A stretch of DNA of 64,000 bases from Escherichia phage slur07. Position 1 is the stretch's first letter, and every line of letters begins with the position of its first letter. The translations under genes were made by a program, and so were the position numbers. Below, piece after piece: positions 2,030-55,040 of the stretch. The stretch is from the sequence record NC_028780.1. One strand, written 5' to 3'. The notes under the pieces were generated by a model that was not told the DNA's origin, ran no database searches, and was given only the letters and a program-made list of their open reading frames with translations.

Positions 2030-2510
2030 TTTTAAAAACTCGCTGGTATGATTTAGATGATGGGGACGATGGCATTTCAGTCGATAGAGTTGACTGGAGC
2101 GGCTGTTCTGAAGATACAAAGAAACGATTAATTAGGGAGTTTAGAATGGGATATCAAGCAGTTAAGCCATCTACTGTAACAGATGATAAATTCGTGTGTA
2201 TTCAAAATGGTCGTGCTAAGTTAACGAACGCTGATTGGTTCACAGATAAGAAGGTTATTCTGTGGTATATTATTAGTTTTCCTGTGACATCATTTGTATT
2301 TTGCTTCTTTGGAGAAAGTCCAGTAGGCAGAACGGAAGATTGGATTCTTTTAATTATACTTGTTAATATTTTTACAGCAGCAGTACTATCAGGAATATGG
2401 TGCGTGTTCATTGAAATGCCATGGCGTTTACGCAGACAGCAAAAGATTTATGATGAAAAGAAATATGCTCAAAATTTAAATAGCTTTATCACTGAATGCA
2501 GGAAATTAAA

Positions 2511-2514
<4 letters not shown>
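2026..2514 (+). CDS. membrane protein (paralogue set)
   Basis: ATG 2026 overlaps upstream stop (ATGA); TM segments; tail SFITECRKLK. Confidence 0.6.
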
Positions 2515-3755
<1,241 letters not shown>

Positions 3756-3756
3756 T

Positions 3757-3786
3757 GTTTACTTCCTCCAAGGACTTTGATACTAT
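3757..3786 (+). promoter_or_regulatory. T4-type early promoter
   Basis: GTTTAC 3757-3762, 18-nt spacer, TACTAT 3781-3786. Confidence 0.5.
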
Positions 3787-3813
3787 ACATTCATCAACTA
3801 CTTGGAGGAAATT

Positions 3814-4230
3814 ATGACTCGTATCAATTTAACACTTGTTTCTGAACTGACCGACCAACATCTTATGGCTGAGTATCGTGAATTGCCGCGTGTTTTTGGT
3901 ATAGTTCGTAAACATGCGGCAAATGGTAAGCGGGTTAAAGATTTTAAAATATCTTCCGAGTTTATTTTAGGCTCTGGTCATGTTACGTTCTTTTACGATA
4001 AGTTAGAATTTTTGCGAAAGCGTCAATCAGACATTATAACGGAATGCTTAAAACGTGGGTTTAGTATAAAAGATACTGAAGTTCCTGACATCAGCGATAT
4101 TCCAGCAGAATGGAAAAATGATTATAATCCATGCAAATCAGCTATTAAATTGAGTCAACAACGACTCGATGAAAAAATTTTAATGAAGCCACACTGGTAC
4201 AAGTATTACGGCAAAAATATTTACATTTAA
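3814..4230 (+). CDS. denV: endonuclease V (pyrimidine-dimer DNA glycosylase)
   Basis: 138 aa starting [12 protein letters not shown]...; matches T4 DenV length and sequence as recalled. Confidence 0.9.
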
Positions 4231-4239
4231 AGGAAACAT

Positions 4240-4713
4240 ATGAAAACATATCAAGAATTTATTACTGAAGCAGCTATTAATTCTCAAATTATTGCTGAAT
4301 CTTTTACTGATCTTTTGAAATTTAAAAAAGGTCAAAAAATCACTGCTGTATTGGATGATGGTACAGAAGTTGAGATGGATGTACAGGGATATAATTATGC
4401 AGTAGATGGAAAACTGTATAATAAATCTCATGCTAAATTTGATTCATTTGACGACTTTGTTAATACAGTTGAAGATGAAAAAACTCGTAGATCCATTGCA
4501 ACTGGTGATGCTAAGGTTCTTATGGCACACGGCCATGAACGCATTCGCGCTAAGCAGAATAAAATGGGCGAAGATAATTTCGCATTAGTTGGTTATCAAT
4601 CTGGTAAACAAACTTATGGTTATCAGCGTACTGCTACCATGTATAACAAAAATGGTAAAATCGCTTTCGTGAATAGTAAAGGTTCTGTTCAGTACGTCAA
4701 ATCATTCAAATAA
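4240..4713 (+). CDS. internal protein with capsid-targeting sequence
   Basis: 157 aa, N-terminus MKTYQEFITEAAINSQ (T4 IP-type CTS, ITE cleavage motif). Confidence 0.75.
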   Translation: MKTYQEFITEAAINSQIIAESFTDLLKFKKGQKITAVLDDGTEVEMDVQGYNYAVDGKLYNKSHAKFDSFDDFVNTVEDEKTRRSIATGDAKVLMAHGHERIRAKQNKMGEDNFALVGYQSGKQTYGYQRTATMYNKNGKIAFVNSKGSVQYVKSFK

Positions 4714-4866
4714 GCAAATAAGAAATATGGGAACAAGCTGGACCTCATGATTCTATGAGGGATTCCCGCCAACCTGTAATAAGGTCGAGCCCAAGTGCGG
4801 TAATGGGTAAATACAGAAATGGAAAATTCATGCGCCATGGAATGGCCCAAATTTAGAGAGAATAAA

Positions 4867-6861: not shown

Positions 6862-6891
6862 GTTTACTTTTCCTCTTGACTGTGGTATAAT
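6862..6891 (+). promoter_or_regulatory. T4-type early promoter
   Basis: GTTTAC 6862-6867, 18-nt spacer, TATAAT 6886-6891 with TGTGG upstream. Confidence 0.6.
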
Positions 6892-6918: not shown

Positions 6919-7380
6919 ATGACTATCAATACAGAAGTTTTTATCCGTCGAAATAAGCTTCGTCGTCACTTTGAGTCGGAGTTTCGTCAAATTAACAATG
7001 AGATTCGTGAGGCATCAAAAGCAGCAGGGGTCTCATCGTTTCATCTAAAATATTCTCAACATCTTCTTGATCGTGCAATTCAACGGGAGATTGATGAGAC
7101 ATATGTTTTTGAATTATTCCATAAAATAAAAGACCATGTTTTAGAAGTTAATGAATTCCTGAGTATGCCTCCGCGTCCTGACATTGACGAGGATTTTATT
7201 GATGGGGTTGAATATCGTCCTGGACGTTTAGAAATCACAGATGGAAATCTTTGGCTTGGATTTACAGTTTGTAAACCTAACGAGAAGTTCAAAGACCCGT
7301 CACTTCAATGTAGGATGGCAATTATCAACAGTCGTCGTTTACCAGGAAAGGCTTCTAAAGCAGTAATTAAAACTCAATGA
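6919..7380 (+). CDS. regB: sequence-specific endoribonuclease RegB
   Basis: 153 aa; start MTINTEVFIRRNKL... and size match T4 RegB as recalled; early promoter upstream. Confidence 0.85.
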   Translation: MTINTEVFIRRNKLRRHFESEFRQINNEIREASKAAGVSSFHLKYSQHLLDRAIQREIDETYVFELFHKIKDHVLEVNEFLSMPPRPDIDEDFIDGVEYRPGRLEITDGNLWLGFTVCKPNEKFKDPSLQCRMAIINSRRLPGKASKAVIKTQ

Positions 7381-7387
7381 GGTAAGC

Positions 7388-7933
7388 ATGAGAAAAGCAC
7401 TACTCGCTGGTCTATTGGCCATTTCAATGATGGCACATAGCTCCGAGCATACTTTCAGTAATGTCCAACTCGATAACATGCGTTACGCGTATCAATTCGG
7501 GGAACAATTTTCTAAGGATGGAAAATATAAAACACATAAAAATATCCACAAGAGCGGATTAGGTCATATAATGGCAGCCATTTTATGGCAAGAAAGCTCT
7601 GGCGGAGTTAATTTAAAATCTAAACCAAAGCATCACGCTTATGGAATGTTCCAAAATTATTTGCCTACTATGCGAGCGAGAGTTAAGGAACTTGGTTATA
7701 ATATGACCGATGCTGAAATAAAAAGAATGTTGAATAAACGGTCCAATTCAGCTTCCTGGGCGTACATTGAACTTTCTTATTGGTTAAATATACATAAGGG
7801 CGATATAAGAAAAGCAATATCCTCTTATAATTCGGGATGGAATGTTAAAGCAGGTTCTAGATATGCTTCTGAAGTCCTAGAAAAGGCTAATTACCTTAAA
7901 AATAATAAACTTTTGGAAATAGTAAATGACTAA
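7388..7933 (+). CDS. secreted lysozyme-like / lytic transglycosylase-like protein
   Basis: signal peptide; ESSGG and YGMFQ motifs typical of SLT/lysozyme-like fold. Confidence 0.55.
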   Translation: MRKALLAGLLAISMMAHSSEHTFSNVQLDNMRYAYQFGEQFSKDGKYKTHKNIHKSGLGHIMAAILWQESSGGVNLKSKPKHHAYGMFQNYLPTMRARVKELGYNMTDAEIKRMLNKRSNSASWAYIELSYWLNIHKGDIRKAISSYNSGWNVKAGSRYASEVLEKANYLKNNKLLEIVND

Positions 7934-8267
7934 AATTTTGGTTTTATGTATAGGATTAATTTCATTTTCTGCGTTAGCAGATACATCATATACTGAAATT
8001 AGAGAGTATGTAAACCGTACTGCAGCGGATTATTGCGGGAAAAATAAAGCATGTCAAGCTGAATTTGCACAGAAATTAATATATGCATATAAAGACGGAG
8101 AAAGAGATAAATCAAGTAGATACAAAAACGATACATTATTAAAACGATATGCTAAAAAGTGGAATACCTTAGAATGTTCAGTTGCGGAGGAGAAAGATAA
8201 AGCCGCTTGTCATTCAATGGTTGACCGTTTGGTAGATTCTTATAATCGAGGATTGAGTACTAGATGA
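7926..8267 (+). CDS. small secreted protein (position of T4 vs)
   Basis: 113 aa with N-terminal signal peptide ending ALA-DT. Confidence 0.45.
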   Translation: MTKILVLCIGLISFSALADTSYTEIREYVNRTAADYCGKNKACQAEFAQKLIYAYKDGERDKSSRYKNDTLLKRYAKKWNTLECSVAEEKDKAACHSMVDRLVDSYNRGLSTR

Positions 8268-8731
8268 TTGTAAAATATATCAAGGGCGATATTGTCGCCC
8301 TTTTCGCTGAAGGTAAAAATATTGCGCATGGATGCAATTGTTTTCATACTATGGGTTCAGGCGTAGCGGGTCAATTAACCAAAGCTTTCCCTAAAATTTT
8401 GGAAGCTGATAAATTACAGACTGAATGGGGTGATGTAACTAAACTCGGTTCTTACTCAGTCTATGAAAAATACTTTAGGACTCATAAAGCGTATTGCTTT
8501 AATCTTTATACTCAATTTCAACCAGGGCCAAATTTTGAGTATTCCGCTTTAATGAATTGTATGTTAGAATTAAATGAGTTTGGTGAAAATAAACTGATTA
8601 AACCTACAATCTATATGCCTAGGATTGGTGCAGGCATAGGTAAAGGGAACTGGGATATTATTGAGGGGATTTTAGATACATATTCCTCTAAATTAGAAAT
8701 TGTGATTGTTGATTGGGAACCGTTATTATGA
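8264..8731 (+). CDS. macro-domain protein (putative ADP-ribose binding/hydrolase)
   Basis: KGDIVALFAEG...IAHGCNCFHTMGSGVAGQL and PRIGAGIGKGNWD glycine loops resemble macro-domain phosphate-binding loops. Confidence 0.55.
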   Translation: MIVKYIKGDIVALFAEGKNIAHGCNCFHTMGSGVAGQLTKAFPKILEADKLQTEWGDVTKLGSYSVYEKYFRTHKAYCFNLYTQFQPGPNFEYSALMNCMLELNEFGENKLIKPTIYMPRIGAGIGKGNWDIIEGILDTYSSKLEIVIVDWEPLL

Positions 8732-8940
8732 ATATACATTATCCACATCCGTATGACCCAAAGAATAAGGCAGTAATTATTCGTCAATGGGAACGCATTT
8801 GTCGTACTAAATGTCCAATTAATAGTCCACATGATGTAGATAAAGACTACATTGGAACATTCGTTGAATATACCTTTATTGATAAGAAAGGTCGTAAACA
8901 GCATGTAGAAGAATACTGCTTAAAGGTGACATGGTTATGA
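8728..8940 (+). CDS. hypothetical small protein
   Basis: 70 aa, ATGA overlap. Confidence 0.45.
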   Translation: MNIHYPHPYDPKNKAVIIRQWERICRTKCPINSPHDVDKDYIGTFVEYTFIDKKGRKQHVEEYCLKVTWL

Positions 8941-9143
8941 GCCAAACTAGTATTCTTAAAAATGCCCACTGTGAAAAGTGTAAATGGCCGGTTGTTTTTG
9001 CTTTATGCAACGATGAAATGGCTTGTGATTTCGATTATTGGTGCTATTGTTCTAATAAAGGATGCATCAATCATAAAGGTGAAGGATTTTATTCGGGATT
9101 TTATCCTTATCCAGATTTCGTTAAAGAAGGTAAACCGAAATGA
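8937..9143 (+). CDS. cysteine-rich small protein (putative zinc binding)
   Basis: 68 aa with 9 Cys (CEKC...CNDEMAC...WCYC...C). Confidence 0.45.
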   Translation: MSQTSILKNAHCEKCKWPVVFALCNDEMACDFDYWCYCSNKGCINHKGEGFYSGFYPYPDFVKEGKPK

Positions 9144-9313
9144 ATAGTTCTGAGTTACAATATGAAGTGTTACGTGAACTTGATAATTTAATTGAACTCG
9201 CTGTTAATAAAGGTTTTGCCATTGGAATTGGTCAAAAAGATACTGATCATTTAACTGTGGAAATATTTAAGCAAAAGCGAATTATTTTAAAACTTTTGGA
9301 AATTAATATATGA
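9140..9313 (+). CDS. hypothetical small protein
   Basis: 57 codons, ATGA overlaps at both ends. Confidence 0.4.
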   Translation: MNSSELQYEVLRELDNLIELAVNKGFAIGIGQKDTDHLTVEIFKQKRIILKLLEINI

Positions 9314-9495
9314 GTTTAAGCAAAGAACAAAAAGACAAACTCTTTTCTCTTATCCACGAAGTTATGGATAAAAACAGTGAATTGGAAAAAGTTTGTGATG
9401 AATGCGGTCCTTTTAATGCAAATGAATACGAAGAACTTTCTAAAGAATTCGATAATAAAGAACAAGAACTTATTAATTATATAAATTCCTTATGA
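9310..9495 (+). CDS. small helical protein (EQK-family paralogue)
   Basis: 61 aa MSLSKEQKDKLFSL...; resembles 9492, 11491, 11697 ORFs. Confidence 0.45.
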   Translation: MSLSKEQKDKLFSLIHEVMDKNSELEKVCDECGPFNANEYEELSKEFDNKEQELINYINSL

Positions 9496-9680
9496 TTACT
9501 CGCGAACAAAAGAACGAAATATTATTTTTAGTTGGTGAAATTATTAGTTTAGAAAAGGATTTGTCTTTTGAAATATCTTCTGAATATGGAGATGCCGAAA
9601 CATATTACGAATTAGTAAAATCTATCGATAAAGTTGAAAATGATTTAGAAACATATTTAGAAAATTTAACTAAGGACTAA
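9492..9680 (+). CDS. small helical protein (EQK-family paralogue)
   Basis: 62 aa MITREQKNEILFLV... Confidence 0.45.
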   Translation: MITREQKNEILFLVGEIISLEKDLSFEISSEYGDAETYYELVKSIDKVENDLETYLENLTKD

Positions 9681-9681
9681 G

Positions 9682-10263
9682 ATGGCGAGTTTAATTTTTA
9701 CTTATGCAGCAATGAATGCTGGAAAATCTGCTTCTCTTTTGACTGCTGCACATAATTATAAAGAACGTGGAATGAGTGTATTAGTTCTTAAGCCTGCTAT
9801 TGATACTCGCGATTCTGTCTGTGAAGTCGTTTCTCGCATTGGAATTAAGCAGGAAGCGAATATTATTACAGATGATATGGATATTTTCGAGTTCTATAAA
9901 TGGGCTGAAGCACAAAAAGATATTCATTGCGTATTTGTAGATGAAGCTCAGTTTTTAAAAACTGAACAGGCGCATCAATTGAGCCGAATTGTTGATACAT
10001 ATAATGTTCCTGTTATGGCTTATGGGCTAAGGACTGATTTCGCTGGAAAATTATTTGAAGGTTCTAAAGAACTTTTAGCGATTGCAGATAAACTTATTGA
10101 ACTAAAGGCAGTTTGTCATTGTGGTAAAAAAGCGATTATGACAGCTCGATTAATGGAAGATGGATCACCAGTTAAAGAAGGTAATCAAATCTGTATTGGT
10201 GATGAAATTTATGTTTCTTTGTGTAGAAAACATTGGAATGAATTAACTAAAAAGCTCGGTTAG
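9682..10263 (+). CDS. tk: thymidine kinase
   Basis: 193 aa; P-loop AMNAGKSASL, zinc ribbon CHCGKKA...C; matches T4 Tk. Confidence 0.93.
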   Translation: MASLIFTYAAMNAGKSASLLTAAHNYKERGMSVLVLKPAIDTRDSVCEVVSRIGIKQEANIITDDMDIFEFYKWAEAQKDIHCVFVDEAQFLKTEQAHQLSRIVDTYNVPVMAYGLRTDFAGKLFEGSKELLAIADKLIELKAVCHCGKKAIMTARLMEDGSPVKEGNQICIGDEIYVSLCRKHWNELTKKLG

Positions 10264-12770: not shown

Positions 12771-13292
12771 ATGTTTATTTCAAGTGAAAGTGGTTTAATT
12801 CGTGTTGAATTTAAAAATGACATCTTCCTTAGTCAAGGAGATGATATTATTAAAATGAGTTATGACGAAATCAAGAAAATTTGTCATACTCTTGAAAGCC
12901 GTGGAAAAGTAAATGCTGTTATTGACATCGGTGATTTATGGGTAACGCTTTATGAAGTATCCGAAGGATTTAACATTGAAGATGAAAATAACATTTTAGC
13001 TATTGATAAAAGAACTGATTTGTTTGATGTATTAAAAGCCTATGAACAGTCAAATGGTGGAAGAAAAGCTGCATTGATTTATCAAAAACCACATTCATGT
13101 GGAACTGCTTCAATCATTTCAAATATTGAAGGTGAAGTTGATACTTATATGTGTGTTTTAAAAGCTGGTGGTGACCGTCATCCGGATTTTATTTCTATTC
13201 GTCAAAACAATGGAGAAATTTCATTATCAAAATCAGAAGCTGAAGCTATGATTAAGTATTTAACAACCATTACGCCTTCAATGAAAGGATAA
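12771..13292 (+). CDS. hypothetical protein (paralogue pair with 12219)
   Basis: 173-aa ORF. Confidence 0.55.
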   Translation: MFISSESGLIRVEFKNDIFLSQGDDIIKMSYDEIKKICHTLESRGKVNAVIDIGDLWVTLYEVSEGFNIEDENNILAIDKRTDLFDVLKAYEQSNGGRKAALIYQKPHSCGTASIISNIEGEVDTYMCVLKAGGDRHPDFISIRQNNGEISLSKSEAEAMIKYLTTITPSMKG

Positions 13293-13294
13293 TT

Positions 13295-13756
13295 ATGATT
13301 ATTAATGAAAACTCTTGGCACTATAAATTATTCAAATTGTTTAACGATGAATGGCAACGACCTAAGACATTATGCGCATATTTTTGGTCTATTGCCATTC
13401 CTACATTTTTCGTTTCTATTTTTGGGTGTGCTATACTCGTAGGGTTAACAATTATTTGTGCAGAAAGCCTACAACGTTGGCTTATTTTCGGTAGTTTATG
13501 GACTCTTCTTCCATCGGCATTTATACTTGCACTTTTGGTTGTTTTACTTATTATCGGTTCATTTGTTATTCCTGCACATTTGCGTGAAAAATATAAAGAT
13601 TATAAATGGAAAAAGGATTATGCTTTACACGTAGAAAATATTGATAGAGCGTATAAAGGTTTACCTCCTATTCAACCCAAGAAATCGATTATCGTCGAAT
13701 TTTTAAAAGCTCGTAAAGCTAAAGTATGTCCTGTTATTGAATATAAGGCTGAATGA
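13295..13756 (+). CDS. membrane protein
   Basis: 153 aa, two to three hydrophobic helices. Confidence 0.55.
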   Translation: MIINENSWHYKLFKLFNDEWQRPKTLCAYFWSIAIPTFFVSIFGCAILVGLTIICAESLQRWLIFGSLWTLLPSAFILALLVVLLIIGSFVIPAHLREKYKDYKWKKDYALHVENIDRAYKGLPPIQPKKSIIVEFLKARKAKVCPVIEYKAE

Positions 13757-33172: not shown

Positions 33173-34857
33173 AGAATTTTAAACTAAATCGAGTTAGGTA
33201 TCAAAATATAATGTCAGTAGGTGGAAATCCTATTGACATTCAATTAGATAAGGTTCAAAAAACTCTTATTACTGGACGAAATGGCGGTGGTAAGTCTACT
33301 ATGCTAGAAGCCATCACATTTGGGCTTTTTGGCAAGCCATTTCGTGATGTAAAGAAAGGTCAATTAATAAACAGCACAAATAAGAAAGAACTTTTAGTTG
33401 AACTGTGGATGGAATATGATGAGAAAAAGTACTATATCAAAAGAGGACAAAAACCGAACGTTTTCGAAATCACCGTTAACGGTACACGTCTTAATGAATC
33501 TGCCAGCAGTAAAGATTTCCAAGCAGAATTTGAACAGCTTATCGGAATGTCATATGCCAGTTTCAAGCAGATTGTTGTCCTTGGTACAGCAGGGTATACC
33601 CCTTTCATGGGTTTGTCGACCCCTGCACGAAGAAAGCTTGTGGAAGACCTGCTTGAGGTAGGAACATTAGCTGAAATGGATAAGCTTAATAAAGCACTAA
33701 TACGTGAATTAAATTCACAAAACCAAGTGCTTGATGTTAAAAAAGATAGTATTATCCAACAAATTAAAATATATAATGATAACGTTGAACGCCAGAAAAA
33801 ATTAACGGGTGACAACCTTACTCGTCTGCAAAATATGTACGATGATTTGGCAAAAGAAGCTAGAACGCTAAAATCGGAAATAGAAGAAGCTAATGAAAGA
33901 TTAGTTAATATTGTTTTGGATGAAGACCCGACTGATGCATTTAATAAAATCGGTCAAGAAGCAGTTTTAATTAAATCAAAAATTGACTCATATAATAAAG
34001 TCATTAATATGTATCACGAAGGTGGATTATGTCCAACCTGTTTGTCGCAATTAAGTTCCGGTGATAAAGTTGTTTCTAAAATTAAAGATAAAGTTTCTGA
34101 ATGCACGCATTCGTTTGAACAGCTTTCAACACATCGTGATAATTTAAAAGTTCTTGTTGATGAATACCGAGATAATATTAAAACCCAACAGTCGTTGGCA
34201 AATGATATTCGCAATAAAAAGCAATCTCTAATCACGACGGTAGATAAAGCTAAAAAAGTTAAAGCGGCTATAGAAAAAGCATCTTCTGAGTTTATTGACC
34301 ATGCTGATGAAATAGCACTGCTTCAAGAAGAACTTGATAAAATTGTTAAGACAAAAACTAATTTAGTAATGGAAAAATACCACCGAGGAATTTTGACTGA
34401 TATGCTCAAAGATTCTGGTATTAAAGGTGCTATTATTAAAAAGTACATTCCATTATTTAATAAGCAGATTAACCATTATCTTAAAATAATGGAAGCGGAT
34501 TATGTGTTTACATTAGATGAAGAATTTAATGAGACAATTAAATCCCGTGGTCGTGAAGATTTTAGTTATGCTTCATTCAGTCAAGGTGAAAAAGCACGAA
34601 TTGATATTGCTCTTTTATTTACTTGGCGTGATATTGCTGAAAAAGTTTCAGGTGTTAAAATAAGTTGTTTATTTCTTGATGAAGTGTATGACGGTGCATT
34701 TGATGCTGAAGGTATTAAAAATGTAGCTAAAATTTTAGATGGTTTGAAGGATACCAACTTCTTCATAATTTCGCATAAAGACCATGACCCACAAGAATAT
34801 GGTCAGCATATTCAGATGGAAAAAGTTGGTAGATTTAGTTTAGCTAAGATTAGCTAA
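33169..34857 (+). CDS. 46: recombination ATPase subunit (Rad50/SbcC-like)
   Basis: 562 aa, GTG start; Walker A GRNGGGKST, central coiled coil with CPTC zinc hook, signature SQGE, Walker B LFLDE. Confidence 0.92.
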   Translation: MKNFKLNRVRYQNIMSVGGNPIDIQLDKVQKTLITGRNGGGKSTMLEAITFGLFGKPFRDVKKGQLINSTNKKELLVELWMEYDEKKYYIKRGQKPNVFEITVNGTRLNESASSKDFQAEFEQLIGMSYASFKQIVVLGTAGYTPFMGLSTPARRKLVEDLLEVGTLAEMDKLNKALIRELNSQNQVLDVKKDSIIQQIKIYNDNVERQKKLTGDNLTRLQNMYDDLAKEARTLKSEIEEANERLVNIVLDEDPTDAFNKIGQEAVLIKSKIDSYNKVINMYHEGGLCPTCLSQLSSGDKVVSKIKDKVSECTHSFEQLSTHRDNLKVLVDEYRDNIKTQQSLANDIRNKKQSLITTVDKAKKVKAAIEKASSEFIDHADEIALLQEELDKIVKTKTNLVMEKYHRGILTDMLKDSGIKGAIIKKYIPLFNKQINHYLKIMEADYVFTLDEEFNETIKSRGREDFSYASFSQGEKARIDIALLFTWRDIAEKVSGVKISCLFLDEVYDGAFDAEGIKNVAKILDGLKDTNFFIISHKDHDPQEYGQHIQMEKVGRFSLAKIS

Positions 34858-35566
34858 GTTTATATTTACAGTTATCATTATGCCACCTTGATAAATTTCC
34901 GAAAGTGGTAACTTTACCGCAATGGACGCAAGTACCAGTCTTTTCAGTTTTCTTGCGTCCATTTGGATTTTTCTTGCAGAAATTTCTATGCGCTGCGATA
35001 ACGCATTTCTTGCCTATCATTCCGCAGAATTCGCAGGATGTTTCTTCAAGAACGATTGCTTTAAGCCCGTTTGAGATATTATTTCTGTGTTCTTTAGACA
35101 TTGGTGGTCTAACTTTAGGATTGGGGTGATTTGGGCAGTTATCAAAATGCCAACGATTCATATTCCCGCTTAATCCAGACTTACCGCAATGAGGACAAGT
35201 TAGTCTTGCTTTATTAGCTACTGCATCAGACATTTTCTTTCGTGTCTCCTGGGAGAATTCTTTATTCTTTTCTATTTCCCAGAGTTTACGACGAATCCAA
35301 CCGAAAGTTTTATTGTTGCGTTTAGCGTATTTTGTGGAAACTGTCATCATGTTAGCAGCATAGACTAATTTTGGTTCAGAAGGATAAATTTTTACTAAAA
35401 GTTGATGAGCTACATAGTGCTCTTCTGGTGTTAAATCTACTAAGTTTGAGGCATCATCGCTGCCATTTAAACAGCGTGGTATAATGTGATGAGATTCAGT
35501 ATAGCAATCAAGTTTTCGAGATTTAGCATTAGAGATTAACTTTTCATAAATTAGTTTATAATTCAT
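34850..35566 (-). CDS. free-standing HNH homing endonuclease with three C-terminal zinc-finger repeats
   Basis: HNH motif ESHHIIPR...NLVDLTPEEHYVAH; repeats CPHCG..WHFDNC, CEFCG..HRNFC, CVHCG..WHNDNC; AAGGA RBS. Confidence 0.8.
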   Translation of the reverse strand: MNYKLIYEKLISNAKSRKLDCYTESHHIIPRCLNGSDDASNLVDLTPEEHYVAHQLLVKIYPSEPKLVYAANMMTVSTKYAKRNNKTFGWIRRKLWEIEKNKEFSQETRKKMSDAVANKARLTCPHCGKSGLSGNMNRWHFDNCPNHPNPKVRPPMSKEHRNNISNGLKAIVLEETSCEFCGMIGKKCVIAAHRNFCKKNPNGRKKTEKTGTCVHCGKVTTFGNLSRWHNDNCKYKLS

Positions 35567-35599
35567 AACATATCCTTTTGATACAGCGAGTGATAAACA

Positions 35600-35607
35600 T
35601 ATTTATA
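35600..35607 (-). promoter_or_regulatory. late promoter box TATAAATA on minus strand
   Basis: forward TATTTATA is the reverse complement; about 33 nt upstream of minus-strand ATG at 35566. Confidence 0.5.
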
Positions 35608-35617
35608 CGGAGGAACT

Positions 35618-35809
35618 GTGGCAGAATATTCAACTGGACAGCATCTATTAACTATTCCTGAAATAAAACGATATATTCTGAGAAATAATTTTTCTAATGA
35701 AGAGCATATAGTTACTGAATCTATGCTTAGGAATGCATTTAAATCAGAATATACAAAAATAATGTCCAATAGAAATGAAGCTTGGACTGTTACTGATTAT
35801 TATGACTAA
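35618..35809 (+). CDS. hypothetical small protein
   Basis: 63 aa, GTG start after GGAGG. Confidence 0.45.
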   Translation: MAEYSTGQHLLTIPEIKRYILRNNFSNEEHIVTESMLRNAFKSEYTKIMSNRNEAWTVTDYYD

Positions 35810-43140: not shown

Positions 43141-43881
43141 ATGATTAGTGACTCTATGACAGTTGAAGAAATCCGTCTTCATTTGGGGCTTGCATTAAAG
43201 GAAAAAGATTTCGTAGTTGATAAAACTGGCGTTAAAACTATTGAAATTATTGGCGCATCATTTGTAGCAGATGAACCGTTTATTTTTGGCGCTCTTAATG
43301 ATGAATACATTCAGCGTGAACTTGAATGGTATAAATCTAAGAGCTTGTTCGTTAAAGATATTCCGGGTGAAACACCGAAGATTTGGCAACAAGTAGCATC
43401 TTCTAAAGGTGAAATTAACTCGAATTATGGTTGGGCTATCTGGTCAGAAGATAACTATGCCCAGTATGATATGTGTTTAGCTGAACTTGGTCAAAATCCT
43501 GATTCTCGGCGCGGTATCATGATTTATACTCGTCCATCTATGCAGTTTGACTACAATAAAGATGGTATGTCAGATTTCATGTGTACGAATACAGTACAAT
43601 ACCTGATTCGTGATAAGAAAGTCAATGCAGTAGTAAGCATGCGCTCAAATGACGTGGTCTTCGGATTCCGTAATGATTATGCATGGCAAAAATACGTATT
43701 AGATAAATTAGTATCTGATTTGAATGCAGGCGATTCAACTCGTCAATATAAAGCAGGTTTTATTATATGGAATGTTGGAAGTCTTCATGTATATTCTCGT
43801 CATTTTTATTTGGTTGATCATTGGTGGAATACTGGCGAAACTCATATTGTGAAAAAAGACTATAAAGGTGAGTGGAAATGA
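43141..43881 (+). CDS. 42: dCMP hydroxymethylase
   Basis: 246 aa; thymidylate-synthase-like; size and position match T4 gp42. Confidence 0.93.
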   Translation: MISDSMTVEEIRLHLGLALKEKDFVVDKTGVKTIEIIGASFVADEPFIFGALNDEYIQRELEWYKSKSLFVKDIPGETPKIWQQVASSKGEINSNYGWAIWSEDNYAQYDMCLAELGQNPDSRRGIMIYTRPSMQFDYNKDGMSDFMCTNTVQYLIRDKKVNAVVSMRSNDVVFGFRNDYAWQKYVLDKLVSDLNAGDSTRQYKAGFIIWNVGSLHVYSRHFYLVDHWWNTGETHIVKKDYKGEWK

Positions 43882-44720
43882 TTCAATTCGTAATTCCAAG
43901 TTATCAGCGTGTAGGGGCAGTTTCTGCCCTTGATATGTTTCCGACTGATTATGAACCGCATATTGTAGTGCGTGAACACGAAGAAAAAGCTTATTATGAT
44001 GCCTATGGGTCTAGAGCTAAAATTATAACTATTCCTGATGATGTAAACGGAATTGCCGGTACTCGTAAAGCAATTACTGATATGTATGCAGGTCAACGAA
44101 TCTGGATGATTGACGATGATACTACTATTCGTATGAGTTCAATGCGAAAAAGAGATGACCGTCGTTGTGTAGATAAAGTCAATCAATTAACCCGTGAACA
44201 GTTCTATGAATTGATTCAATACGTCGAAGATGCCATGGATTGTGGGTATTATCATGGTCATGCTCGTCTACCTATTTTTAAAATTACTTCATCTTGGGGT
44301 AATTATCGTGAAAATTCATATGGATTCACGAATACATGGTATGACCTTGGAAAACTTACAACAGAACAAATTGGGTATGGAAAAATTGATTTATGCGAAG
44401 ATATGTATGCATTTCTCAATTTAATTAATCAAGGTTATCCGCATTTGGCCTTGTTCAAATATCTGGTTGTATCTGGAAAAGCACAAGCTCCTGGCGGATG
44501 TAGTTCAATTCGTAGTAATTCTAAACATAATAGAGCGCTTGAACAAATCAATAGAGAGTTTCCAGAGCAAGCTCGTTGGAAAACTTCTAATATTGAAAAA
44601 CGAAAATCGTTGGGTGAAGAAGACGAGCCATTAAAGGTTCTTCGCATGTGTGTTTCTCGTAAAGAAAAATCAGAAGCATTTCATAAGTTTAATGCTATTC
44701 ATCCAATAGCAGTTGATTAA
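43878..44720 (+). CDS. GT-A type glycosyltransferase in the T4 beta-gt position
   Basis: DxD motif IWMIDDDTTI; 280 aa; not the T4 beta-glucosyltransferase sequence as recalled. Confidence 0.65.
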   Translation: MIQFVIPSYQRVGAVSALDMFPTDYEPHIVVREHEEKAYYDAYGSRAKIITIPDDVNGIAGTRKAITDMYAGQRIWMIDDDTTIRMSSMRKRDDRRCVDKVNQLTREQFYELIQYVEDAMDCGYYHGHARLPIFKITSSWGNYRENSYGFTNTWYDLGKLTTEQIGYGKIDLCEDMYAFLNLINQGYPHLALFKYLVVSGKAQAPGGCSSIRSNSKHNRALEQINREFPEQARWKTSNIEKRKSLGEEDEPLKVLRMCVSRKEKSEAFHKFNAIHPIAVD

Positions 44721-44797
44721 TGCCTAAATTTATTGTGTTATAATTACTCTATCTTTAACCAGTGAGGAAAATATAATGATGCCTATGGAAAAAATGA

Positions 44798-45979
44798 ATG
44801 TCTATTGCAGATTTAAAATCCCGTTTGATTAAAGCTTCCACTTCTAAAATGACTGCTGAACTGACTACATCTAAATTCTTTAATGAAAAGGATGTAATCC
44901 GTACAAAAATCCCAATGCTTAATATTGCTATTTCTGGTGCGATTGATGGCGGTATGCAGTCTGGTTTAACTATTTTCGCAGGGCCTTCTAAACACTTTAA
45001 ATCAAATATGTCTTTGACTATGGTTGCGGCATATTTGAACAAATATCCTGACGCGGTTTGTCTATTCTATGATAGCGAATTTGGTATTACTCCAGCTTAT
45101 TTGCGATCCATGGGAGTTGACCCGGAACGAGTAATTCATACGCCAATTCAGTCAGTTGAACAGCTGAAAATTGATATGGTGAACCAGCTTGAAGCTATTG
45201 AGCGTGGTGAAAAGGTTATTGTATTCATCGACTCAATCGGTAATATGGCTTCTAAGAAAGAAACTGAAGATGCCTTGAATGAAAAATCTGTGGCAGATAT
45301 GACTCGTGCTAAATCACTGAAGTCATTATTCCGTATTGTTACTCCTTATTTTAGCATTAAAAATATTCCGTGCGTTGCGGTTAACCATACAATTGAAACC
45401 ATTGAAATGTTTAGTAAAACCGTGATGACAGGTGGTACAGGCGTAATGTATTCGGCTGATACTGTATTCATTATCGGTAAGCGTCAGATTAAAGATGGTT
45501 CTGATCTTCAGGGGTATCAATTTGTTCTAAATGTAGAAAAATCTCGTACCGTTAAAGAAAAAAGTAAATTCTTTATTGATGTTAAATTTGACGGTGGTAT
45601 CGATCCTTATTCTGGATTGTTAGATATGGCTCTAGAATTAGGATTTGTAGTAAAACCTAAAAATGGCTGGTATGCTCGTGAATTTCTTGACGAAGAAACC
45701 GGCGAGATGATTCGCGAAGAAAAATCTTGGCGTGCAAAAGATACCAACTGCACTACATTCTGGGGTCCTTTATTTAAGCATCAACCATTCCGAGATGCTA
45801 TTAAACGTGCTTATCAGTTAGGTGCTATTGATAGTAATGAAATTGTTGAAGCTGAAGTTGATGAATTGATTAACTCAAAGGTTGAAAAATTTAAATCTCC
45901 AGAAAGTAAAAGTAAATCAGCAGCTGATTTAGAAACTGACCTCGAACAGTTAAGTGATATGGAAGAATTTAATGAATAA
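44798..45979 (+). CDS. uvsX: RecA-like recombinase UvsX
   Basis: 393 aa; matches T4 UvsX throughout. Confidence 0.95.
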   Translation: MSIADLKSRLIKASTSKMTAELTTSKFFNEKDVIRTKIPMLNIAISGAIDGGMQSGLTIFAGPSKHFKSNMSLTMVAAYLNKYPDAVCLFYDSEFGITPAYLRSMGVDPERVIHTPIQSVEQLKIDMVNQLEAIERGEKVIVFIDSIGNMASKKETEDALNEKSVADMTRAKSLKSLFRIVTPYFSIKNIPCVAVNHTIETIEMFSKTVMTGGTGVMYSADTVFIIGKRQIKDGSDLQGYQFVLNVEKSRTVKEKSKFFIDVKFDGGIDPYSGLLDMALELGFVVKPKNGWYAREFLDEETGEMIREEKSWRAKDTNCTTFWGPLFKHQPFRDAIKRAYQLGAIDSNEIVEAEVDELINSKVEKFKSPESKSKSAADLETDLEQLSDMEEFNE

Positions 45980-48619: not shown

Positions 48620-48976
48620 ATGTATAGTTCTGAATTTTCATATTTAAAAATGGAAAAAATTTCATACGATTTTATAGATGAAAAGGTTTATTACAGTTTC
48701 CATGAACCACGTTTTAATAGTGAGGTTGGGTTTATTGTAGTAAAAGATAATTTTATTTTAAAAATATATTCAGCATTAAAGGATTTTCATTACGAAAATA
48801 TTAACCTAAAATTTAATAAAGAAAACGTTCGTAATTGCGCAGTAACAATTACAGGAAATAAAGGTACATGTGTTATGCTATCTGATGAAATTAATGATTT
48901 GCTAAATGATGCAGAAAATATTACTGCACCATCTATTGATGACCAAATTTTTAATGCTTTTATGAATAGAGGTTAA
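48620..48976 (+). CDS. hypothetical protein (T4 61.2 position)
   Basis: 118-aa ORF. Confidence 0.5.
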   Translation: MYSSEFSYLKMEKISYDFIDEKVYYSFHEPRFNSEVGFIVVKDNFILKIYSALKDFHYENINLKFNKENVRNCAVTITGNKGTCVMLSDEINDLLNDAENITAPSIDDQIFNAFMNRG

Positions 48977-50441: not shown

Positions 50442-50960
50442 ATGGCTCACTTTAATGAATGTGCTCATTTGATCGAAGGTGTTGATAAAGCAAATCGTGC
50501 ATATGCTGAGTATATTATGCACAGTATTGACCCATTGCAGGTTATGCTTGACATGCAGCGGCATTTACAGATTCGTTTGGCTAATGATAAACCAGAAACA
50601 AATCGTCATCCTGATTCACTTGAAACTGCAGGAGAAGTTCTTGCTTGGCTGCGAAACCAAGACGATTATATCGCAGATGAAACTCGCGAGCTATATACTT
50701 CTCTTGGTGGTATGAGTAATGGTGAAAAAGAAGCTTCTGCCGTATGGAAACCTTGGAAGAAACGTTATTCTGAAATGCAATCCAAGAAAATTCAAGACTT
50801 ATCTCCTGAAGATCAACTTGAAATTAAATTTGAACTGATTGATCAATTTCACTTTTTCATGAATAAATTCATTGCTCTTGGAATGTCAGCTGAAGAAATA
50901 TTTAAACTTTATTATCTGAAAAATGCTGAAAACTTCGCTCGTCAAGACAGAGGCTATTAA
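50442..50960 (+). CDS. 56: dCTPase/dUTPase (dCTP pyrophosphatase)
   Basis: 172 aa starting MAHFNECAHLIEG; size and position match T4 gp56. Confidence 0.8.
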   Translation: MAHFNECAHLIEGVDKANRAYAEYIMHSIDPLQVMLDMQRHLQIRLANDKPETNRHPDSLETAGEVLAWLRNQDDYIADETRELYTSLGGMSNGEKEASAVWKPWKKRYSEMQSKKIQDLSPEDQLEIKFELIDQFHFFMNKFIALGMSAEEIFKLYYLKNAENFARQDRGY

Positions 50961-51163
50961 TGGCTCGTTTAAATAAACGTCAGCTTAAGAAAGCCCGCAA
51001 GAAACGTATTGACCAGCTATTTAAAGATTATGACAAGGAGCTCGTATGTGAGTTCTTATCTAATCAGCTTCGCAAAGCTTACACAATTAAAACTGGGCAT
51101 ATACCATTAGGCAAGTGGGTACATGAAGAAGCCTTAAAATTAATTATAGAGCATTCAAAATGA
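50960..51163 (+). CDS. basic small protein
   Basis: 67 aa, Lys/Arg-rich N-terminus. Confidence 0.45.
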   Translation: MARLNKRQLKKARKKRIDQLFKDYDKELVCEFLSNQLRKAYTIKTGHIPLGKWVHEEALKLIIEHSK

Positions 51164-51369
51164 AATTTAATTTTTATGCATGGCAAAAAGCCGGGAGACC
51201 GGCTAGTCGAGCATTTGGTTCTGATGGATATAATATTAGAGCCCATTGGAAATTTAATGCTCCAGACGATTATTCTCCGGTAATTATTAACGGCGATGTT
51301 GTTATATTAACTAAAATTGGATATTTTACCGTTCCGCGAGAATTTATTATAAATAATCATGTAATTTAA
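51160..51369 (+). CDS. hypothetical small protein
   Basis: 69-aa ORF. Confidence 0.45.
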   Translation: MKFNFYAWQKAGRPASRAFGSDGYNIRAHWKFNAPDDYSPVIINGDVVILTKIGYFTVPREFIINNHVI

Positions 51370-53817: not shown

Positions 53818-54441
53818 ATGATTATTAATCTTGCAGATGTTGAACAGTTATCTATAAAAGCTGAAAGCGTTGATTTTCAATATGATATGTATAAAAAGGT
53901 CTGTGAAAAATTTACTGACTTTGAACAATCCGTTCTTTGGCAATGTATGGAAGCCAAAAAGAATGAAGCTCTTCATAGGCAGTTGAATAAAATCATTAAA
54001 AAGCATTTAACTAAATCACCTTATCAGTTATATCGTGGTATATCAAAATCAACAGAAGAACTCATTAAAGATTTACAAGTTGGAGAAGTGTTTTCAACGA
54101 ACAGAGTAGATTCATTTACTACTAGTTTGCACACAGCATGTGGTTTTTCTTATGTTGAGTATTTCACTGAAATAATATTTCGCTTAAAAACTGATAAAGC
54201 TTTTAATTATTCTGACCATATCAGCGATATTATACTTTCTTCTCCTAATACTGAGTTTAAGTACACGTATGAAGATACTGATGGGCTAGATTCAGAGCGT
54301 ACTGATAACTTAATGATGATTGTGCGTGAACAAGAATGGATGATTCCAATTGGAAAGTATAGAATAACTTCTATTTCAAAAGAAAAATTACACAATTCAT
54401 TTGGAACATTTAAAGTTTATGATATTGAGGTAGTTGAATGA
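53818..54441 (+). CDS. modB: ADP-ribosyltransferase (ModB-like)
   Basis: 207 aa; R-S-E motifs (YRGIS, SxTTS, EQEWMIP); paralogue of next ORF. Confidence 0.7.
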   Translation: MIINLADVEQLSIKAESVDFQYDMYKKVCEKFTDFEQSVLWQCMEAKKNEALHRQLNKIIKKHLTKSPYQLYRGISKSTEELIKDLQVGEVFSTNRVDSFTTSLHTACGFSYVEYFTEIIFRLKTDKAFNYSDHISDIILSSPNTEFKYTYEDTDGLDSERTDNLMMIVREQEWMIPIGKYRITSISKEKLHNSFGTFKVYDIEVVE

Positions 54442-55040
54442 AATACTCAGTAATGCAACTAAAAGATTTTAAAATAAAATCAATGGATGCATCGGTGCGT
54501 GCTTCTATTCGTGAAGAATTACTTTCTGAAGGGTTTAATTTATCTGAAATTGAACTTTTAATTCATTGTATTACTAATAAACCAGATGACCATACTTGGT
54601 TAAATGAAATAATCAAATCTCGTTTGGTTCCAAACGATAAACCTCTTTGGAGAGGTGTTCCAGCTGAGACTAAACAAGTATTAAATCAAGGAATTGATAT
54701 TATTACATTTGATAAAGTCGTATCAGCTTCATATGATAAAAATGTAGCTCTACATTTTGCTTCCGGTTTAGAGTATAACACACAAGTTATTTTTGAATTC
54801 AAAGCTCCTATGGTATTCAATTTCCAGGAGTATGCTATAAAAGCTCTACGCTGTAAAGAATACAATCCAAACTTTAAGTTTCCGGATAGTCATCGTTATC
54901 GTAATATGGAATTAGTTTCAGATGAACAAGAAGTAATGATACCAGCTGGAAGTGTATTTAGAATTGCAGATAGATATGAGTATAAAAAGTATTCAACATA
55001 CACTATCTATACTCTTGATTTTGAAGGATTTAATCTATAA
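54438..55040 (+). CDS. modA: ADP-ribosyltransferase (ModA-like)
   Basis: 200 aa; WRGVP, SASY, EQEVMIP. Confidence 0.7.
   Translation: MKYSVMQLKDFKIKSMDASVRASIREELLSEGFNLSEIELLIHCITNKPDDHTWLNEIIKSRLVPNDKPLWRGVPAETKQVLNQGIDIITFDKVVSASYDKNVALHFASGLEYNTQVIFEFKAPMVFNFQEYAIKALRCKEYNPNFKFPDSHRYRNMELVSDEQEVMIPAGSVFRIADRYEYKKYSTYTIYTLDFEGFNL

Follow-up and report, generated by a model that had tools for sequence, protein, structure and literature searches.

The question raised by the 155-aa open reading frame between vs and tk in this T4-like Tequatrovirus is whether it encodes a macrodomain that undoes a host ADP-ribosylation defence and, if so, by means of which active-site residues. The gene corresponds to T4 tk.4, for which both the domain and a role against DarTG2 are already known: an A1pp/macro match of tk.4 orthologues has been on record since 2006 (PMC1524935), RefSeq annotates T4 Tk.4 as 'phosphatase; contains A1pp phosphatase motif', and the role was reported in 2025 in a preprint that named the gene adfM (bioRxiv 10.1101/2025.11.20.689424). 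An earlier note, written from the DNA without database searches, had proposed the macrodomain and its possible action on DarT-type DNA modification and had implied that T4 has no macro domain at this position; the proposal agrees with the published record and the remark on T4 was mistaken. Sequence-only reading can thus recover a real counter-defence function, and the remaining value of Tk.4, the most widespread phage macrodomain family, is mechanistic.

This report describes the gene, its context and the class and active site of its product. It is argued that the product of tk.4 (adfM), an orphan ALC1-like macrodomain with no second domain, probably removes the thymidine-linked ADP-ribose made by DarT2, most plausibly through a glutamine-type site.

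Gene Context

The window (the whole stretch of 64,000 nucleotides analysed here) contains an ATG-to-TGA frame of 155 aa that occupies exactly positions 8264-8731 (+) in the ORF list. The two Gly-rich strings to which the earlier note had drawn attention are present in it, HGCNCFHTMGSGVAGQL at residues 22-38 and PRIGAGIGKG at residues 119-128. Upstream lies vs (valyl-tRNA synthetase modifier; 7926..8267, +), the stop codon of which overlaps the tk.4 start in an ATGA, and downstream lies tk.3 (8728..8940, +), which starts in a second ATGA over the tk.4 stop and has a product identical to T4 Tk.3. The genes are closely packed on the same strand in the order regB (6919-7380, +), vs.1 (7388-7933, +), vs, tk.4, tk.3, two small extra ORFs, tk.2, tk.1 and tk (9682-10263, +). 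The position of tk.4 behind regB, vs.1 and vs, together with the overlapping start and stop codons, suggests that it is co-transcribed and translationally coupled with these genes.

The best, and only decent, + strand promoter match upstream of the regB-vs.1-vs-tk.4 string is a sigma-70-like site at 6863..6891 (TTTACT-17-TATAAT with an extended TG), a consensus match that is suggestive at most since a promoter/terminator scan of the region returned 21 sites against 20.5 expected from shuffles, that is, without enrichment. A hairpin with a perfect 9-bp stem, AAGGGCGAUAUUGUCGCCCUU, is found at 8282-8302, within codons 7-13 of tk.4 and 18 nt past its start codon; the 81-nt region folds only modestly better than shuffles (z = -2.2), and the structure could influence translation of tk.4 or processing of its mRNA. 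A 2026 preprint on T2 reports an interaction, captured by RIL-seq, between the tk.4 mRNA and ArcZ, an sRNA of the host (bioRxiv 10.64898/2026.06.19.733364); the label 'putative thymidine kinase' given to tk.4 in that work is a misannotation.

Some neighbouring genes differ from their T4 counterparts. Vs (7926-8267, +) has two residues fewer than T4 Vs (an 'SA' repeat unit) in a signal-peptide-like N-terminus and is identical in the rest. Between tk.3 and tk.2 about 370 bp extra hold two small ORFs absent from T4, at 8931-9143 and 9140-9313 (both +), of which one is Cys-rich (70 aa, PHROG 2306) and the other measures 57 aa (PHROG 3452). The full stretch of both is matched in records of RB14, RB18 and T2, and the RB14 annotation there reads 'RB32ORF111c'.

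Identity to T4 Tk.4 and Distribution of the Family

The protein is identical over 155/155 residues to T4 Tk.4 (NP_049723.1) and to T4 ORF 60.5 in X04567.1, and the two genes differ at 6/468 nucleotides, all of them third-position and synonymous. In T4 the gene for Tk.4, or AdfM, likewise lies between vs and tk.3 and overlaps its two neighbours at the start and stop codons in the same way. The identical protein suggested that the window might be T4 itself, which is ruled out by blastn against NC_000866: the collinear blocks show 75-98% nucleotide identity and several stretches are unmatched, as befits a relative of T4. Stretches with no or weak T4 match in the otherwise collinear alignment are located at about 3472-4725, 12789-13745, 34837-35624, 43863-44810 and 50923-51348; judged from their location they are the counterparts of the ipII/ipIII, mobD, gene 45.2/46, segA and segF regions of T4, internal-protein and homing-endonuclease loci at which such mosaicism is usual. 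Over positions 7900-9700 the best match is to Salmonella phage vB_SenS_Jbel (99.0%), followed by Shigella phage SHBML-50-1 (98.9%).

By tblastn the Tk.4 protein was found in 2,749 phage records, and the family occurs in very different phages and hosts. Together with matches to PHROG 335 (E=1.3e-65) and to Pfam Macro (see below), and with the restriction of the differences from T4 to synonymous sites, this spread indicates that 8264-8731 is not a chance ORF. In many deposited T-even genomes the product is annotated as a 'macro domain protein', a 'Poa1p-like family protein' or a 'phosphatase'.

Fold and Class

The macrodomain assignment was borne out both by profile search and by structure prediction. 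Tk.4 matches Pfam Macro (PF01661) with 27.7 bits (gathering cut-off 22 bits; E=2.9e-6) over profile positions 2-113 of 118, and a sequence search of the PDB returned BT1257 (1.3e-9), Poa1p, SCO6735, DarG macrodomains and TARG1. An AlphaFold2 model built from a 44-sequence alignment (pLDDT 95.4, pTM 0.90), which was used in place of a discarded single-sequence model (pLDDT 38), has the three-layer alpha/beta/alpha macro fold. In Foldseek comparison with the PDB it aligns with TARG1, Poa1p, BT1257 and DarG at TM-scores of 0.71-0.81, TARG1 being the top match (E=3e-9). The nearest structural and sequence neighbours all belong to the ALC1-like class and are clearly apart from MacroD-type and viral macrodomains, so Tk.4 is a stand-alone member of the class that includes TARG1, DarG, SCO6735 and Poa1p.

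Predicted Active-Site Residues

Three segments of Tk.4 make up the predicted active site. Loop 1 (residues 22-35, HGCNCFHTMGSGVA; 8327..8368, +), as delimited by hhalign alignments, contains Asn25 (8336-8338), which corresponds to Asn27 in SCO6735 and to Asn22 in T. aquaticus DarG. The NLYTQ motif (residues 80-84; 8501..8515, +) ends in Gln84 (8513-8515), and loop 2 (residues 119-130, PRIGAGIGKGNW; 8618..8653, +) is the Gly-rich, diphosphate-binding loop, aligned with MPRIGCGLDRLQW of TARG1 and PPLGAGNGGLPW of DarG; within it Gly126 stands at the position of TARG1 Asp125. In both MAFFT and hhalign alignments N80-L-Y-T-Q84 of Tk.4 falls on N-F-P-T-K80 of T. aquaticus DarG and L-I-T-K84 of TARG1, such that Gln84 replaces the catalytic lysine (Lys80 and Lys84, respectively) and coincides with the essential Gln85 of SCO6735. 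The residue numbering of TARG1 (Lys84/Asp125) follows the literature (PMC9411070).

Conservation was assessed in 119 members of the Tk.4 family, the most divergent at about 34% identity. Q84, Y82, G33 and A35 are present in 119/119 and N25, C26, D49 and N80 in 118/119, while P119, I121, G122 and G124 of loop 2 are invariant. Profile-profile alignment of the family with SCO6735/BT1257 (hhalign, 98.9%, E=1.9e-17) places Q84 on Gln85 and N25 on Asn27, and it was relied on for the BT1257 register around Gln84, where the phmmer and MAFFT alignments were out of register. DarG lies at much the same distance from the family (99.2%, E=1.1e-19).

The exchange of Lys for Gln is also the hallmark of SCO6735. 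In SCO6735, Gln85 is essential for cleavage of thymidine-linked ADP-ribose from DNA (Q85A is inactive) and is locked in place by Asn27 (N27S is nearly inactive; PMC9411070). Judged from the aligned residues, the Tk.4 site is most plausibly of this Gln type, with Gln84 positioned by Asn25, and not of the Lys type of DarG and TARG1; these two would then be the key residues of the enzyme. The Gln84 detail goes beyond the published accounts that were found.

Protection Against DarTG2 and Alternative Explanations

The genetic evidence comes from T4. In the HIDEN-SEQ preprint of November 2025 a T4 transposon library was grown on a DarTG2-expressing host, tk.4 was the sole significant hit, and a clean knockout of the gene sensitised T4 to DarTG2 (bioRxiv 10.1101/2025.11.20.689424). 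This fills a gap, since a T4 delta-adfA delta-adfN mutant remains DarTG2-resistant (PMC11825919). The identical T4 protein thus lends genetic support to the role against DarT-type DNA ADP-ribosylation that had been proposed from the DNA, and this phage may be expected to grow on DarTG2 hosts given the 100% identity of its Tk.4 protein to that of T4. As for the activity, the preprint notes a structural similarity of Tk.4 to M. tuberculosis DarG and considers that removal of ADP-ribose by the enzyme only 'seems likely' (bioRxiv 10.1101/2025.11.20.689424); the literature searched yielded no biochemical assay of the T4 protein.

Protection would be achieved by enzymatic removal of thymine-linked ADP-ribose, along the following lines. 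On infection of a DarTG2 host, the DarT2 toxin modifies single-stranded phage DNA with ADP-ribose at N3 of thymidine, which blocks replication. Loops 1 and 2 of Tk.4 most likely bind the ADP-ribose, with Gln84 and Asn25 predicted to position the distal ribose, and the enzyme most likely hydrolyses the thymine-ribose bond, which would yield free ADP-ribose and restored DNA. NudE, a Nudix enzyme of the phage, could then break down the released ADP-ribose. A nudE homologue is located at 2496-2951 (+), and the annotation of T4 gives ADP-ribose as a substrate of the Nudix hydrolase NudE.

Two observations count against this enzymatic model: Tk.4 has neither the catalytic Lys of DarG and TARG1 nor the longer, Lys-containing mobile loop of SCO6735, which falls in a gap of the hhalign alignment. 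The missing DarG-type Lys would also suit a protein that mainly binds and blocks DarT2 stoichiometrically, or shields the modified DNA, rather than hydrolysing the modification, and there are precedents for such behaviour, as DarT is inhibited in vitro by each of the catalytically dead mutants SCO6735 Q85A, DarG K80A and TARG1 K84A, most strongly by that of SCO6735 (PMC9411070), and the anti-DarT factors AdfA and AdfB are direct DarT inhibitors. As the principal mode of action it is nevertheless unlikely. The residues needed for SCO6735-type catalysis are all invariant across the 119 family members (save the single exception at N25), as expected for an enzyme and not for a binder of fast-evolving toxins; nothing in Tk.4, at 155 aa compared with about 346 aa for DarG, corresponds to the C-terminal domain that binds DarT; and the occurrence of the family in widely differing phages and hosts is in keeping with an activity directed at the product and independent of the toxin. 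A contribution of stoichiometric DarT2 inhibition to the protection is plausible.

Other substrates have lower probability than thymidine-linked ADP-ribose. That Tk.4 is a small-molecule enzyme (an ADP-ribose-1''-phosphate phosphatase or O-acetyl-ADP-ribose deacetylase) serving the metabolism of NAD or RNA-repair by-products, with a secondary anti-DarT effect, would account for the 'phosphatase' label in the databases; in the phmmer alignment with Poa1p, among the positions mutated in PDB entries (His23, Ser30 and Phe152), His22 of Tk.4 matches His23 and Thr29 matches Ser30. We regard such a role as quite improbable, for the label derives from domain naming and not from an assay, Phe152 of Poa1p is replaced by Gly126, and the sole phenotype reported for tk.4 is specific to DarTG2 (bioRxiv 10.1101/2025.11.20.689424). 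Hardly any weight is given to the idea that Tk.4 acts on the ADP-ribosylation (or RNAylation) of host proteins by Alt, ModA and ModB of the phage itself, reversing or tuning it, for which the earlier note had also allowed and for which no support was found. The same 64-kb window does contain modB (53818-54441) and modA (54438-55040), as that note had read, and Arg-linked ADP-ribose is chemically within reach of the fold, as illustrated by the arginine-specific macrodomain MavL of Legionella, which is cited in the reference list of PMC13036486. However, tk.4 lies about 45 kb from these ADP-ribosyltransferase genes and not next to them, the closest relatives of Tk.4 in sequence and fold are ALC1-like enzymes directed to thymine/uracil and Glu/Asp, not to arginine, and no phenotype supporting such a reversal was found in the literature searched. 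In the CmdTAC paper macrodomains appear only in the reference list.

Comparison with Known Macrodomains and Anti-DarT Factors

The removal of DarT2-made ADP-ribose through a Gln-type site, favoured here, would make Tk.4 a protein that works like the DarG macrodomain, although it is not a DarG. For comparison, DarTG2 operons encoding a DUF4433 toxin and a macro-domain antitoxin of about 346 aa were retrieved from Meiothermus and Haliscomenobacter plasmids by plasmid tblastn, and the DarG macrodomain sequences of T. aquaticus and M. tuberculosis were recovered from PDB alignments. Assignment of Tk.4 as a DarG was rejected on several grounds. The NCBIfam DarG equivalog NF048014 gives 30.3 bits, below its cut-off of 250, over profile positions 2-146 of 338 only; DarG (PDB 5m31, 5m3e, 5m3i, 7omu) has NFPTK with the catalytic Lys80, whereas Tk.4 has NLYTQ, with Gln throughout the family; the DarG proteins fetched measure 346-352 aa, with a match to PDB 7yk3 in the C-terminal part, whereas Tk.4 consists of the macrodomain only, devoid of the DarT-binding domain; and in DarG operons DUF4433 is directly upstream, whereas the neighbours of tk.4 are vs and tk.3, with no adjacent DarT/DUF4433 gene. 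Human TARG1/OARD1 (PDB 4j5r, 4j5s), the top Foldseek match, also removes thymine- and uracil-linked ADP-ribose but relies on a dyad of Lys84 and Asp125, positions that are occupied in Tk.4 by Gln84 and Gly126.

The closest parallel in active-site residues is provided by SCO6735 of Streptomyces coelicolor and BT1257 of Bacteroides (PDB 5e3b, 2fg1, 2afc), which share about 22-29% identity with Tk.4. The Gln85/Asn27 pair of SCO6735 recurs as Gln84/Asn25, and both residues are conserved family-wide. The two proteins differ in the mobile loop, which in SCO6735 is about 5 residues longer, bears Lys89/Lys94 and has been proposed to bind DNA (PMC9411070), the corresponding gap in Tk.4 following Gln84, and in context, SCO6735 being the product of a cellular DNA-damage-inducible gene and Tk.4 that of a phage counter-defence gene.

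Within the same phage group a functional analogue is AdfN of T4 (gp30.3), an orphan antitoxin-like ADP-ribosylglycohydrolase which, as proposed for Tk.4, erases DNA ADP-ribosylation made by DarT; its NADAR fold is unrelated to that of Tk.4, and it is specific for guanosine (DarT1) and inactive against DarTG2 (PMC11825919). The position of T4 gene 61.2, which encodes the other anti-DarT factor AdfA (208 aa), is taken here by a 118-aa ORF (48620-48976, +) that has no megablast match to T4. The whole of this ORF is covered by a match to PHROG 4122, and a weak match links it to the C-terminal half of the 210-aa PHROG 3781; it may be a different or shortened AdfA allele.

The name AdfM was given independently, in a Cell Reports paper of 2026, to the macrodomain protein gp104 of PhiKZ (PMC13309987). 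Like Tk.4, gp104 of the chimalliviruses is an orphan phage macrodomain that counters DarTG2; it is imported into the phage nucleus and removes ADP-ribose from DarT2-modified TNTC DNA in vitro (PMC13309987). It is of the DarG type (hhalign to DarG E=4e-29, 33% identity) and keeps the Lys of FPTK where Tk.4 has Gln84, and the similarity between the two is slight (BLASTP E=0.005 over 23 aa; hhalign against the Tk.4 family E=5e-10), which places the two proteins named 'AdfM' on separate branches of the class. On a tentative reading, to which we give somewhat less than even chances, the T4-type and PhiKZ-type proteins are independent recruitments of different macrodomain lineages against DarTG2, with Tk.4 acting by a Lys-independent, water-mediated mechanism based on Gln84 and Asn25. 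A Lys-independent, water-mediated Gln/Asn mechanism has so far been proposed only for SCO6735. If this reading is true, Tk.4 might, like SCO6735, act beyond DNA, for example on uracil-ADP-ribosylated RNA or on Glu/Asp-ADP-ribosylated proteins, and its family, with more than 2,700 phage records, would have a broader anti-ADP-ribosylation role than the neutralization of DarTG2 alone. The SCO6735-type mechanism may be the main one among phages, and 'AdfM' may denote two convergent enzyme lineages.
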